NCBI RefSeq assembly: GCF_011045215.1
Contig: NZ_CP049201.1
Reading direction: 5' to 3' (one strand)
From: Escherichia coli
Lineage (GTDB): Bacteria > Pseudomonadota > Gammaproteobacteria > Enterobacterales > Enterobacteriaceae
DNA length: 64,000 nt
Shown here: piece after piece, positions 52,580 to 59,037 of the stretch
Position numbering within the stretch: position 1 is the stretch's first letter
Layout: every line of letters begins with the position of its first letter
Program-made: the position numbers and the translations under genes
Notes under the pieces: model-generated
Told to the model about the DNA's origin: nothing
The model's input: the letters and a program-made list of their open reading frames with translations, nothing else
Databases searched by the model: none

Positions 52580-53044
52580 ATGAGAAGAAAACGCGAAGAA
52601 ATCGCATCGCCAGAAGCTACGCAGCGTCTGCGCGCAGTCTGGGATGCAAAAAAAAGAGAGCTCAAACTGACTCAGGAGCTTGCTGCTGAGCTGATGGGCT
52701 TTGAGACTCAATCCACAGTTAGCCACTATCTCAACGGAAAGGCTCCACTAAACACTGATGCAGCATTAAAATTCGCTGTATTACTAAGAGTTAAGCCTGA
52801 AGAGTTGAGGCCTGATTTAGCTGATCTGATGAATTACGTCCGTTCTTCAGGAACTTATGACGAAAGTTTCGAAGGCGAAGGTTGGCGGATGGTTAACAAG
52901 CAACAAGCTGATTTACTGGATCTTTTTGAAATCCTACCCGAATCAGAAAAAGCAAAACTAATCGAAAGGCTTAAAGGTCAGAATGAACTCTACAAAGAAG
53001 CGTTTGAAAAGATGCTGGCAGCTCAGAAACGCATGAAGAAATAG
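52580..53044 (+). CDS. Prophage repressor, RacR-like (XRE-family HTH)
   Basis: 154-aa ORF, N-terminal HTH (LTQELAAELMGFETQSTVSHYLNGK); divergent from cro-like gene. Confidence 0.65.
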   Translation: MRRKREEIASPEATQRLRAVWDAKKRELKLTQELAAELMGFETQSTVSHYLNGKAPLNTDAALKFAVLLRVKPEELRPDLADLMNYVRSSGTYDESFEGEGWRMVNKQQADLLDLFEILPESEKAKLIERLKGQNELYKEAFEKMLAAQKRMKK

Positions 53045-53279
53045 CTCCCGCAACCTCGTAACTAAACCGCCATTTTTGGCGGTTTTTTTGTCCCCTCTGC
53101 CCCCTCACCTTACTTTTTTATCAAAAAAAACACTAAAAATTTCATTACGATAGTGCATTTTTATCAACAAAATGCATATTTATGTTGATCACTCATATGA
53201 ATATAACTAATATTATTGCAGAAGTAGCACGGCGCTGTAGGTTTTAGTTCCGCCACCCGGCGTTAAGGGGAGAGATAAG

Positions 53280-53585
53280 ATGACATTTACTCAGGGTATT
53301 GACCCGCTAGAAACGAATAATGCTGTATTTTGTCTGGCGTATGAATTGTCTGTACAGGCATCAACAATGGCAAAGGAAAGAGAGCTAACTCCAGGGCAGG
53401 CACGTCTCGCACTGGAACTCGCCAGCCGGGTATCAGTAGCAAAAAAAATCGCACCAGCCGTAATGGCACGAAACCTGGCTGATGCAATTACAGATCTCAG
53501 GTCACTACAACCATACAATTATCATGTCGAAGAGGTATTAGAAAAATTAATCGCTGCTGCCGACGCCATCATTGATGAACTGTAA
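53280..53585 (+). CDS. Hypothetical early protein
   Basis: 101-aa ORF with AAGGGGAGAG RBS. Confidence 0.4.
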   Translation: MTFTQGIDPLETNNAVFCLAYELSVQASTMAKERELTPGQARLALELASRVSVAKKIAPAVMARNLADAITDLRSLQPYNYHVEEVLEKLIAAADAIIDEL

Positions 53586-53853
53586 TAATTGATATGCGGG
53601 AATTTCTATTCCTGAGAGATGCATTTTTCACGCCCGGACAACGCCCGGCAATTGCCAGATTCAGTTTTTCACGCTGCTCTGGCGTAAGAAGTTTAACAAG
53701 TTCTTCAAGAACAAGCGCGGTAGCCTCTAATCTGGCGGAAAGATAATCAATATTTTTGTGTTGAGATTGAATAGGCATAAGCAATTCCTTACTGGTTGTG
53801 TGAGAGCGCCAGTATACCACCGAGCCTGAAGTGGTAAAAAAAGACAAGCACAC
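53569..53853 (-). CDS. Hypothetical protein
   Basis: 94-aa track ORF opposite to early-left transcription; weak. Confidence 0.25.
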   Translation of the reverse strand: MCLSFFTTSGSVVYWRSHTTSKELLMPIQSQHKNIDYLSARLEATALVLEELVKLLTPEQREKLNLAIAGRCPGVKNASLRNRNSRISIITVHQ

Positions 53854-54198
53854 AACACGAAAGCGTACGGAGGAGGTGTTTTTCCCTTAGAAGGCTTGTC
53901 GTTAAATTTCTTCGACCGTGCGCTTCCGGTTGTGAATAACAACATTGCTGTGTGTAGTCTTGGCGGCATCAGTTTTTTCTTGAAGTTCGGCTGATGTCCG
54001 CCCTTTTTAAAGTGAATTTTGTGATGCGGTGAATGCGGCTCAGCGCACGCGGAACAGTTAAAAGGCCAGTTGACCTCCGTATTGGTTCTTATGGGTGGGT
54101 TCTCTGTATCCGGCGTTAATTGTTAACTGGTTAACGTCACCTGGAGGCACCAGGCACCGCATCGACAAAATTCATTTGTGAAAATGGAGATAATTATG

Positions 54199-54417
54199 AT
54201 TGCTCATCACTTCGGAACTGATGAAATACCACGTCAGTGTGTGACTCCTGGCGATTATGTTCTTCATGAAGGTCGGACATATATCGCCTCAGCAAACAAT
54301 ATTAAAAAGCGAAAACTTTATATTCGTAGCCTGACTACAAAAACATGCATTTCTGACTGCATGATTAAAGTCTTCCTCGGTCGTGATGGTTTACCTGTAA
54401 AGGCGGAGTCATGGTGA
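54199..54417 (+). CDS. Hypothetical early protein
   Basis: Track ORF starts at GTG 54178; ATG at 54199 with GGAGA upstream. Confidence 0.35.
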
Positions 54418-54587
54418 TGACTAAGAAAATAAAATGTGCTTACCACCTTTGCAATAAAGGAATTGAAGAAAGCAAAAGCATTAAAAGACCACTTCATTTC
54501 ATGCGTGGAGTTATCCCAACGACGGAAATGAAAAAATATTGTAGTGAAAATTGTGCCGAAAAAGACCAGATGGCACACGAACTCTAA
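54417..54587 (+). CDS. Small Cys4 zinc-ribbon protein (56 aa)
   Basis: Not in track. ATG overlaps upstream stop (TGATGA); encodes [56 protein letters not shown]. Confidence 0.45.
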   Translation: MTKKIKCAYHLCNKGIEESKSIKRPLHFMRGVIPTTEMKKYCSENCAEKDQMAHEL

Positions 54588-54661: not shown

Positions 54662-54961
54662 ATGCACAAGCATATTAAATGTGAAATTGAACTTGATGTT
54701 ATTAACGATTCTCTCGCCGAATTTAAATGCGGGAATACATTACATGGTTTTATTCAGATTTCCCAAAAAGAAAACATTACGGTAATTATTGATGGTGGTT
54801 ACGTTCTGGGAACATTTGATTGTGATGCATGTGCCCTTAAAGAAGTCGCATTACTCGCAGCTCGTATTGAAGAGGCTGACAAGAAATACGGTATCAGTTA
54901 TCAACGACTGAAAGAACTCTCTTATATCGCATCATCAGTTCATTTCTTTTATGCAATCTGA
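54662..54961 (+). CDS. Hypothetical early protein
   Basis: Track ORF 54614..54961; internal ATG at 54662 with AAGGAAA upstream. Confidence 0.35.
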   Translation: MHKHIKCEIELDVINDSLAEFKCGNTLHGFIQISQKENITVIIDGGYVLGTFDCDACALKEVALLAARIEEADKKYGISYQRLKELSYIASSVHFFYAI

Positions 54962-54985: not shown

Positions 54986-56887
54986 ATGAGCATAAAACAA
55001 CACTTCCTGTTACGGAAAGCGAAAAAATCATCCGGTGAACCTGACGCAGTTCTGTGGGCAAGCGACGATCTCGAATCGACCAGTGCCACTCTGGACTACC
55101 TGATTGTTAAGTCAGGTAAAAAACTGAGCAACTATTTTAAAGCTGTTGCTACGAATTTTCCTGTCGTTAACGACCTGCCCCCAGAAGGGGAGATCGATTT
55201 TACGTGGTGTGAACGCTATCAACTCGGCAAGGACTCCATCACCTGGGAACTAAAACCAGGTGCAGCACCAGACGACGTTCACCATCAGGAGAATATCCCG
55301 GAAACTGAAGAACTGGCTGGAGACCAGGAAGAAAACGCGCAGGCGGACGCTCACGGGGATTGCCAGGATTGCGAAGTTCCTGTAGCCACACTCAGTCTTA
55401 CTCATCGTTTCCTTCATCTCTTCTTTTTCGGTCAGATGGAAGGTGGAAAATACAGTAGTCACGCCACGCCGGAACAGCGCAATACCGTCATCCGGATGGA
55501 GCTGGATACGGAGGACAGCTACCTCCAGAGTCTGCTTACAGCAGTACGCTCTCATCCTGAACTGGATAAGCTGACAAACCACCATCTTGGCAGACTGGCG
55601 GAGTCTGTATCCAGAGTGTTTACCCACACAGAAACCCGTTGCATCAGCCCCGCTGAATTCGACAAATTCATTTCCACCTGGATGAAAACTGATTATCTGG
55701 ATCAGGGATTACTGACAAAAGAATGGGCGAAGGGAAACTGCGTATCTGAAATCAATCGCACCCCGTCGGGCGCTAATGCCGGTGGCGGTATCCTTACCGA
55801 CCGTGGAGAAGGTTTTGTCCATGATGATGCATCAGTAGCGCGTGACGTAGCCGCTGGCGTACTGGCACGTTCAATGGATATCGATATTTACAATCCACAT
55901 CCAGCACACGCTAAACGTATTGGGGAAATTGTCGCTGAAAATAAACCGCCATTTTCTGTTTTTTTCAGCAAATTCATCACCATGCCTGGCCACAAGGATT
56001 TCTCCCGCGCCATCGTGGTTGCGTCCGTGAAAGAAGCGCCAGTCGGTATAGAGGCTACCCCACACCATGTCACTGAATATCTGAACAGGGTGCTGACTGA
56101 AACCGATCATGCCAACCCTGATCCGGAAATCGTGGATATTGCCTGCGGTCGCTCCTCTGCCCCGATGCCACAGCGTGTAACAGAAGAAGAAAAACCGCAA
56201 CCATCTTGCGCAATGGCAGATGAACAGGCAACGGCTGAAACAGTGGAACCGGATACAAGTGAACATCATCAGGACACGCAGCCGCTGGATGCCAAGTCAC
56301 AGGCCGATGCGAAATATCAGAAACTGCGGGAAGAACTCCATGAAGCCCGGAAAAACATTCCGCCCAAAAATCCTGTCGATACAGACAAAATGCTGGCAGT
56401 CCATCGCGGTGAGTTCGTTGAAGGAATTAGCGACCCGAATGATCCGAAATGGGTGAAGGGAATTGAAACCCGCGATTCTGTGAACCAGAACCTGCCAGAA
56501 ACGGAAAAAACCAGTCAGGATGTGAAACAACCTGAGCCAGTAGTGCAACGGGAACCGGAAATAGTCTGCACCGCCTGCGGTCAGAGCGGTGGCGGCAACT
56601 GCCCTGATTGTGGCGCGGTGATGGGCGACGCAACATATCAGGAAACATTCGATGAAGAGAATCAGGCTGAAACTCAGGAAAATGATCCGGAGGAAATGGA
56701 AGGCACTGAACCATCATTAGAAAAACTCGACTGGAAAAGACAAGTGGTGATTGCGGCTGTTTATGGTTTGTGTGCGAATCCTGCAGGTATAGCCTCAGCG
56801 CCATTAATTCCGGGTATTGCAATGATGATTGCCAACAAGCTTGAAAATTTTGGGGTGACGGATGATGAGCACATACCCGATTTTTGA
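54986..56887 (+). CDS. Large hypothetical early-left protein (633 aa), acidic, C-terminal CxxC...CxxC and hydrophobic tail
   Basis: Long ORF between immunity region and gam; motif [16 protein letters not shown] then hydrophobic [30 protein letters not shown]; no family recognised. Confidence 0.6.
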
Positions 56888-57161
56888 TCGCATTGAAGAG
56901 CTGGCATGGTCACGCCACTACCAGCAGATCGTTCGCGAAGAAAAAGAAACGGAGCTGGCAGACGACCTGGAAAAAGGTCTACCCCAGCACCTGTTTGAAT
57001 CGCTCTGCATCGACCATTTGCAACGCCACGGTGCCAGCAAACAGGCAATCAGTCGCGCATTTGATGACGATGTTGAATTTCAGGAACGCGTGGCGGAACA
57101 CATCCGGTACATGGTTGAAACCATTGCTCGTCACCAGGTTGATATTGATTTGAAGGTATAA
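56862..57161 (+). CDS. gam: Gam, RecBCD inhibitor (lambda Gam-like)
   Basis: 99 aa; ...[42 protein letters not shown]... closely matches lambda Gam; precedes bet. Confidence 0.85.
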
Positions 57162-57166
57162 AACAA

Positions 57167-57952
57167 ATGAGTACAGCACTTGCAACACTGGCCGGGAAGC
57201 TGGCTGAACGTGTCGGCATGGATTCTGTCGACCCACAGGAACTGATCACCACTCTTCGCCAGACAGCATTTAAAGGCGATGCCAGCGATGCGCAGTTCAT
57301 CGCATTGCTGATCGTCGCCAACCAATACGGCCTTAATCCGTGGACGAAAGAAATTTACGCCTTCCCTGATAAGCAGAACGGCATCGTTCCGGTGGTGGGC
57401 GTTGATGGCTGGTCCCGCATCATCAATGAAAACCAGCAGTTTGATGGCATGGACTTTGAGCAGGACAATGAATCCTGTACATGCCGGATTTACCGCAAGG
57501 ACCGTAATCATCCGATCTGCGTTACCGAATGGATGGATGAATGCCGCCGCGAACCATTCAAAACCCGCGAAGGCAGAGAAATCACCGGACCGTGGCAGTC
57601 GCATCCCAAACGAATGTTGCGGCATAAAGCCATGATTCAGTGTGCCCGTCTGGCCTTCGGATTTGCTGGTATCTATGACAAGGATGAAGCCGAGCGCATT
57701 GTCGAAAATACCGCATACACTGCAGAACGTCAGCCAGAACGCGACATCACTCCGGTTAACGATGAAACCATGCAGGAGATTAACACTCTGCTGATCGCCC
57801 TGGATAAAACATGGGATGACGACTTATTGCCGCTCTGTTCCCAGATATTTCGCCGCGACATTCGCGCATCGTCAGAACTGACACAGGCCGAAGCAGTGAA
57901 AGCTCTTGGATTCCTGAAACAGAAAGCCACTGAGCAGAAGGTGGCAGCATGA
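57167..57952 (+). CDS. bet: Bet (Red-beta) single-strand annealing protein
   Basis: 261 aa, [35 protein letters not shown]..., essentially lambda Bet. Confidence 0.95.
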
Positions 57953-58629
57953 CACCGGACATTATCCTGCAGCGTACAGGGATCGACGTGAGAGCTGTCG
58001 AACAGGGGGATGATGCATGGCACAAATTACGGCTCGGCGTCATCACCGCTTCAGAAGTTCACAACGTGATAGCAAAGCCCCGCTCAGGAAAGAAGTGGCC
58101 TGACATGAAAATGTCCTACTTCCACACCCTGCTGGCTGAGGTTTGCACCGGTGTGGCTCCGGAAGTTAATGCTAAGGCGCTGGCCTGGGGAAAACAGTAC
58201 GAGAACGACGCCAGAACCCTGTTTGAATTCACTTCCGGCGTGAATGTTACTGAATCCCCGATCATCTATCGCGACGAAAGTATGCGCACCGCCTGCTCTC
58301 CCGATGGTTTATGCAGTGACGGCAACGGCCTTGAACTGAAATGCCCGTTTACCTCCCGGGATTTCATGAAATTCCGGCTCGGTGGTTTCGAGGCAATAAA
58401 ATCGGCTTACATGGCCCAGGTGCAGTACAGCATGTGGGTGACGCGAAAAGATGCCTGGTACTTTGCCAACTATGACCCGCGTATGAAGCGTGAAGGCCTG
58501 CATTATGTCGTGGTTGAGCGGGATGAAAAGTACATGGCGAGTTTTGACGAGATGGTGCCGGAGTTCATCGAAAAAATGGACGAGGCACTGGCTGAAATTG
58601 GTTTTGTATTTGGGGAGCAATGGAAATGA
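57949..58629 (+). CDS. exo: Exo (Red-alpha) 5'-3' exonuclease
   Basis: 226 aa, [40 protein letters not shown]..., essentially lambda Exo. Confidence 0.95.
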
Positions 58630-58856
58630 GCGCAGCCACAAAGCTCACAGGAGAAAAACCAGTGCGATACACAAAAATTAAACCATGTCCATTTTGTGGT
58701 TGTCCATCAGTAACGGTGAAAGCCATTTCAGGATATTACCGAGCGAAGTGTAACGGATGCGAATCCCGAACCGGTTATGGTGGAAGTGAAAAGGAAGCAC
58801 TCGAAAGATGGAATAAACGAACCACTGGAAATAATAATGGAGGTGTTCATGTATAA
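58620..58856 (+). CDS. Lar-family restriction alleviation protein (RalR-like)
   Basis: 78 aa with zinc-ribbon motif KPCPFCGC...CNGCE typical of Lar. Confidence 0.6.
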
Positions 58857-59037
58857 AATTACCGCCACTATTGAAAAGGAAGGTGGCACTCCTACTAACT
58901 GGACAAGATATTCAAAATCTAAACTAACGAAATCAGAATGCGAAAAAATGCTCTCAGGTAAAAAAGAAGCGGGCGTTTCCAGAGAGCAGAAAGTAAAACT
59001 GATAAATTTTAATTGCGAGAAACTTCAGTCCTGGTGA
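58849..59037 (+). CDS. Hypothetical small protein
   Basis: Track ORF 58777..59037; internal start [10 protein letters not shown]... assumed. Confidence 0.35.
   Translation: MYKITATIEKEGGTPTNWTRYSKSKLTKSECEKMLSGKKEAGVSREQKVKLINFNCEKLQSW

Follow-up and report, generated by a model that had tools for sequence, protein, structure and literature searches.

The short open reading frame directly downstream of kilR in this stretch of DNA raises two questions: whether it is a genuine gene, and, if so, whether its product acts together with KilR or only shares its operon. Within the window (the whole stretch of 64,000 nucleotides that was analysed), the frame occupies positions 54417..54587 on the + strand, and comprises 56 codons followed by a TAA stop codon at 54585-54587. 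Its ATG (54417-54419) shares one nucleotide with the TGA that ends kilR (54415-54417), giving a TGATGA junction at 54415..54420, and its translation contains two Cys pairs, Cys7-x4-Cys12 and Cys42-x3-Cys46. A first-pass annotation, made from the letters alone, had reported that the start overlaps the preceding stop, that there are two Cys pairs, that the ORF lies in the early-left operon, and that it is like small Rac early proteins. All of these hold: the ORF lies directly after kilR in a Rac-like gene order, and it is almost certainly Rac's own gene, the ydaE of a Rac-like prophage.

By size alone this ORF is unremarkable, as the same 5 kb is overlapped by 58 ORFs of 30 aa or more; an antisense ORF at 54318..54578 has no match among the PHROG families, the sole library scanned for it. 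Instead, ydaE is taken as a real gene because of its homology to an established family, its invariant Cys residues, and purifying selection. The product matches NCBIfam NF041288 ('YdaE family protein') over its full length (88.1 bits against a cut-off of 35; E 3e-25), falls into phrog_1520 in the PHROG scan, and is 73% identical to YdaE of K-12 MG1655 (b4526, 171 nt, RefSeq product 'zinc-binding protein'); its homologues carry the precomputed Pfam assignment PF27493. Across 29 aligned domain sequences, reaching down to 36% identity, Cys7, Cys12, Cys42, Cys46, Tyr9, Tyr41, and Ala53 never vary and the C-terminal DQMAHE hardly does, and the window protein has the family pattern of C-x2/4-C followed by YC-x3-CA and a C-terminal DQMAHE. 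Departures from the conserved residues among relatives occur in singleton, frameshifted, or Shigella sequences. Poor conservation of the Cys residues in homologous loci had been named at the outset as grounds for doubting the ORF; with all four invariant, the ORF stands. The dN/dS ratio, estimated as pooled pN/pS, is 0.42 over 33 distinct nucleotide alleles, and pN/pS between the window and K-12 is 0.45, values which indicate that ydaE is under purifying selection.

The position of the start codon is of interest for how the gene may be expressed. A putative GGAG Shine-Dalgarno sequence (54405..54408, + strand) lies within the 3' end of kilR, 8 nt before the ATG. Another in-frame ATG at 54411 would yield a 58-aa form, but as this codon sits just 2 nt from GGAG, the start at 54417 is the better candidate, and the equivalent start is used by the RefSeq homologues. 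The 58-aa form, beginning MVM, is nevertheless present in some databases. Together, GGAG and the TGATG overlap, which is found likewise in K-12, suggest that translation of ydaE is coupled to that of kilR. In a few alleles (among IMG/VR loci L012-L091), AAG or ATA replaces the ATG of the junction, and these must either start at an upstream in-frame ATG or GTG or go without translation.

The genes on either side identify the setting. Immediately upstream, kilR (54196..54417, + strand) encodes a 73-aa inhibitor of FtsZ/MreB morphogenesis (NF008465, 160.5 bits against a cut-off of 92; phrog_294). A RacR-like HTH repressor, assigned from PHROG and the annotation of a homologue, is encoded upstream of the early-left genes at 52580..53044 (+ strand). 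The next operon gene after ydaE, in the position of racC, encodes 99 aa (54662..54961, + strand; phrog_2434), and is followed by a RecE-family ORF of 633 aa (54986..56887, + strand) in which the N-terminal Exonuc_VIII domain is the only one retained (residues 4-183; Pfam PF06630, 203 bits). This ORF is without the nuclease domain, and RefSeq labels its homologue partial RecE. It runs into the start of a lambda-type Gam (56862..57161), after which come Bet (57167..57952) and YqaJ/Exo (57949..58629), such that the recombination module of the window (54986..58629) reads as a Rac/lambda hybrid. In all, the prophage genes around ydaE are those for YdaT, YdaS, the RacR-like repressor, KilR, YdaE, the RecE N-terminal domain, Gam, Bet, Exo, RalR/RalA, and an integrase, and the DNA that flanks the prophage, ttcA-dbpA-zntB, matches E. 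coli chromosomes at 99.6% identity. The element is therefore a Rac-like prophage that occupies the Rac attachment site, with its early-left operon on the + strand. The gene thus has the setting of its family, the early-left operon of a lambdoid or Rac-like prophage, between repressor and recombination genes.

K-12 Rac has the order kilR, ydaE (with the one-base overlap), racC, recE, and recT, and the two YdaE proteins share their length of 56 aa, four Cys residues, the C-terminal DQMAHEL, the kilR overlap, the operon position, and the attachment site by ttcA. The window allele differs in the middle, at residues 13-25 and 30-39, and its prophage has the hybrid module where K-12 Rac has recET. 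In transcriptome work summarised in PMC11014345, ydaE, kilR, ydaF, ydaG, and racC were up 40-70 fold when RacR was displaced or its control perturbed. As to the 99-aa protein, no Pfam match was found for it; it is encoded directly 3' of the YdaE gene, with its 'DGGYVLG' motif, even where YdaE is only about 45% identical, as with its counterpart at L008 8367..8654, and a homologue bears the RefSeq name 'DNA breaking-rejoining protein'.

The description of the ORF as unannotated, in contrast, was wrong. It is a known, catalogued gene, with a K-12 annotation and families of its own in NCBIfam, Pfam, and PHROG, and was probably absent only from the length-filtered track used for the first reading. 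DNA resembling ydaE is present in 1817 of the 5426 complete E. coli genomes, about one-third, where NCBI PGAP applies the label 'YdaE family protein'; when the region was compared by megablast with complete E. coli genomes, the matches fell on loci labelled 'kilR | YdaE family protein | RecE'. A word-indexed search found 32 clusters of close relatives, 28 came from searching 1.84 billion representatives exhaustively by HMM, and at least 594 IMG/VR contigs encode one. The named hosts are E. coli, Shigella, Salmonella, Citrobacter, Kosakonia, and Atlantibacter. As a discovery, then, ydaE matters little, since the gene is already annotated; the fusions described below are a modest lead.

What kind of domain YdaE forms bears on what it might do. 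The first-pass annotation called it a Cys4 zinc ribbon; the Cys4 finger stands, and 'ribbon' is imprecise. Alignment of the YdaE family with the cyanobacterial protein SmtA (PDB 1JJD) by hhalign gave 88.9% probability and E 2.4e-6, pairing Cys7, Cys12, Cys42, and Cys46 of YdaE with SmtA Cys9, Cys14, Cys32, and Cys36. The latter four constitute zinc-finger site A of SmtA. The two proteins share a C-x4-C ... YCSxxCA pattern, and the hairpin of YdaE is 12 residues longer. Blindauer et al. are said to have found that YdaE of E. coli K-12 binds one zinc through four Cys residues, in an SmtA/GATA-like finger. For zinc binding by YdaE, PMC6892955 refers to Blindauer et al. 2002, and bacterial metallothioneins contain a GATA-type finger according to PMC10612145.

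AlphaFold2 modelled YdaE alone poorly (pLDDT 56). When KilR was concatenated to YdaE, with natural fusions in the alignment, mean pLDDT rose to 84.7, and the YdaE part reached 82-89; however, pTM was 0.52, and therefore a confident packing of the two domains is not predicted. In this model, Cys7 and Cys12 form a knuckle on a short hairpin, residues 22-30 and 33-41 form a long hairpin, Cys42 lies at its end after strand 33-41, and Cys46 is in the first turn of a C-terminal helix (residues 44-54). The predicted arrangement is a treble-clef/GATA layout and not that of a zinc ribbon. Fold searches with the KilR-YdaE model returned matches to the KilR half and none to the finger. Taken together, the profile alignment and the model suggest that YdaE is better described as an SmtA/GATA-like (treble-clef) finger.

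Among loci with a YdaE match, kilR lies directly upstream with the same 1-nt overlap in 78 of 86, a figure biased to close relatives, as it was drawn from the 80 loci with the greatest similarity to the query. The exhaustive HMM search also recovered single-chain KilR::YdaE proteins of 124-129 aa, in which YdaE is joined in frame to the KilR C-terminus, in Atlantibacter and related prophages. The first approximately 66 residues are KilR (43% identical to the window KilR, E 7e-20; NF008465, 89 bits), and the last 50 are YdaE (81 bits). The fusions form six clusters at 90% identity, which are 56-72% identical to the query fusion P0054, and one Atlantibacter hermannii cluster has 207 member sequences. 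On Atlantibacter contigs the gene for the fusion comes next after a CI-like repressor, ahead of recE/recT. The architecture is visible in public databases, and among the literature searched no paper was found that links ydaE to KilR function or reports these fusions.

KilR is not the only protein to which the finger is attached. A second recurrent partner is a peptide of 38-47 aa ending in LAQKGDP, which is fused to YdaE in frame in prophages of E. coli and Citrobacter (including Citrobacter braakii), and is encoded as a separate ORF with a 4-8 nt overlap with the YdaE-like gene in Gifsy-2 (Salmonella; STM1010.2n/1n) and in Kosakonia. Such peptide and YdaE-like pairs are found at L092 2431..2698 (Gifsy-2), L004 8001..8288, and L099 4864..5159. 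No relationship of this peptide to KilR was detectable save a 10-residue junction motif, with L-x-x-K/R-G-D-P common to the peptide and the KilR C-terminus. In mEp237, Kil and the YdaE-like gene are 11 nt apart. Additionally, the domain follows an unrelated 135-aa domain, and in one lytic-looking contig the finger is the end of a 190-aa protein. In some prophages (L080, 2796..3162; L097, 1078..1445), a small DUF1482 protein with a hydrophobic N-terminus replaces kilR upstream of the YdaE-like ORF. Because the domain also follows the QKGDP peptide, DUF1482, and the 135-aa domain, the link between YdaE and KilR is not exclusive. Nor is it required: POCJ13 (KilR 93% identical) and PhiR5_2 (KilR approximately 80%), both viable Stx-type phages, have another gene after kilR and are without ydaE, and KilR-like genes with no YdaE match also occur in many Stx phages, in phi80, and in HK639. 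YdaE is therefore not an obligate partner or antitoxin of KilR, but an optional, portable module.

The place of attachment on KilR coincides with the part known to matter for its activity. Recent work shows that KilR inhibits FtsZ as well as MreB by means of its C-terminal tail, whose last 12 residues are needed for toxicity in a length-dependent manner, and KilR alone is fully toxic (PMC12482147). These 12 residues abut YdaE, and become the linker in the fusions. Overall, the fusions and overlaps with KilR and other proteins suggest that YdaE is an accessory module of Kil-type morphogenesis inhibitors. We propose that YdaE is a small, zinc-stabilised protein-binding module that would be made in step with KilR through translational coupling, would act as an optional accessory of such inhibitors, and may tune or retarget the activity of the essential KilR tail, which is joined directly to the finger in single-chain KilR::YdaE. 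Taken as a whole, a Rac-like ydaE with this Kil-accessory mechanism is the best explanation for the locus, and one towards which we lean slightly. Its mechanistic part, a finger that modulates or retargets Kil-type inhibitors, is tentative and falls somewhat short of an even chance. A more specific form, that prophages attach a portable finger by coupling or fusion to the active C-terminal end of small morphogenesis inhibitors (KilR and the unrelated QKGDP peptide), with the finger setting the target (FtsZ or MreB) or the potency, is a doubtful but reasonable guess. If that form were true, KilR and YdaE would be a two-part device for controlling host shape, a gene in approximately one-third of E. 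coli genomes would gain its first function, and the dependence of the KilR tail on its length would be accounted for. The natural fusions offer a cheap, testable lead, which could assign a role to a very widespread small prophage protein and refine the account of how cryptic prophages arrest host growth under stress.

The best surviving alternative is that YdaE is an independent early host-takeover protein, which binds and either inhibits or redirects a host enzyme unrelated to KilR and adjoins kilR only through operon packing. We consider this possible, if on the unlikely side. The occurrence of the domain behind several unrelated genes, and its lack in phages with otherwise close kilR genes, both speak for it, and the near-invariance of DQMAHE at the C-terminus hints at a conserved target surface. 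Likeness to fingers of known binding proteins points the same way. Pfam RPAP2_Rtr1 (PF04181) matches YdaE residues 6-52 at 32.0-32.1 bits, just below its cut-off of 33 (E 1.4e-7), and 18 of the 29 family members give matches just below this threshold. There are also weak matches to YacG in one member and to zf-FCS/zf-FLZ in a few. Against host takeover, the recurrent in-frame fusions to the preceding product, whether KilR or the QKGDP peptide, favour joint action over packing. A K-12 ydaE knockout is less prone to killing by the Agrobacterium T6SS, with partial complementation (PMC7012810), which counts in favour of an independent protein, although the reported ydaE phenotypes could be polar effects on kilR, racC, or recET. 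In Tn-seq, ydaE disruption is enriched under chemical stress (PMC5064937). Neither the T6SS nor the Tn-seq phenotype discriminates among the readings, and both may be polar effects.

These profile similarities also explain some labels in circulation. The score of PF04181 near its threshold makes common finger ancestry plausible, and because of this similarity some databases name YdaE homologues 'Rtr1/RPAP2 family'. However, YdaE covers only profile positions 20-69 of 75 with the whole of its 56 aa, and is the finger alone, with nothing of the remaining eukaryotic Pol II CTD-phosphatase domain. The finger of Rtr1/RPAP2 contacts RNA polymerase II, and the fourth ligand of the Rtr1 motif is His, whereas that of YdaE is Cys. 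The 'protein phosphatase' label that some bacterial homologues bear was rejected as over-annotation. YacG, a small zinc-finger inhibitor of DNA gyrase, illustrates how a finger of this kind may exert its effect solely through binding to a host protein. It resembles YdaE as a Cys4 finger of approximately 60 aa with an FCS-like 'xCSxxC' second pair, but is a functional analogue only: significant homology is absent, and there is no sign that YdaE touches gyrase. Lambda Kil and CIII are small proteins made on derepression from genes that lie between the immunity region and the recombination genes. They are positional analogues of YdaE with no sequence relationship to it, and a YdaE-type finger is absent from lambda.

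That YdaE is instead an antitoxin or immunity factor for KilR, in a toxin-antitoxin-like pair whose coupling ensures stoichiometric neutralisation, is improbable. A stop/start overlap with a toxic upstream gene is what such a pair might show, and the study of KilR in PMC12482147 leaves open whether the toxin has a partner or belongs to such a system. However, obligate co-occurrence fails in the functional phages named above, which have KilR 93% and approximately 80% identical and no ydaE, and a stable covalent fusion is unusual for an antidote. Moreover, in the OxyS/KilR papers, induction of the native operon, with ydaE co-expressed, is still tied to KilR-dependent division arrest. The PADLOC models matched neither YdaE, KilR, the fusion, nor the extended forms.

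Very improbable is a role in regulating phage or host transcripts as a nucleic-acid-binding GATA-like finger. The predicted GATA-type/treble-clef topology and the basic N-terminus (MTKKIK) would suit it, but the C-terminal helix and tail (AEKDQMAHEL) are acidic, unlike the basic GATA tail, the net charge of the K-12 allele is near neutral, no HTH or other DNA-binding signature was found, and the matches to C2H2 fingers in the PDB are repeated sub-threshold pattern matches. Finally, a metallothionein-like zinc buffer or chaperone in zinc homeostasis, for which the likeness to the SmtA zinc-finger core and a 'putative Zn chaperone' listing in PMC6892955 can be cited, is scarcely credible, since YdaE has just the four site-A Cys and a prophage early-operon setting without tie to metal regulation, and its presence did not track zinc tolerance in PMC6892955. 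Metallothionein identity itself was considered and rejected: Metallothio_Pro (PF02069) scores 19.9-20.1 bits, below its cut-off of 33, YdaE has four Cys residues in total and no multi-zinc-cluster ligands, SmtA C11, C16, and the Cys/His-rich C-terminal tail of its four-zinc cluster are without counterpart, and SmtA is of a metal-regulated kind of gene whereas ydaE is a prophage early gene.

Two further features of the prophage were observed. Approximately 1.1 kb (window 53100..54190) separates a terminator-like hairpin of the repressor (53064..53085) from kilR. The ORFs of this interval (53280..53585, + strand; 53569..53853, - strand) have no match in PHROG, the sole library scanned for them, and Rfam has no match within 53100..54190. 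The K-12 counterpart of the interval contains sieB, ydaF, ydaG, and the sRNA KilS. Towards the integrase end of the prophage, the antitoxin sRNA RalA is encoded at 58855..59033 on the - strand (Rfam RF02694, 217.5 bits against a gathering threshold of 170), marking a RalR/RalA type I toxin-antitoxin system.
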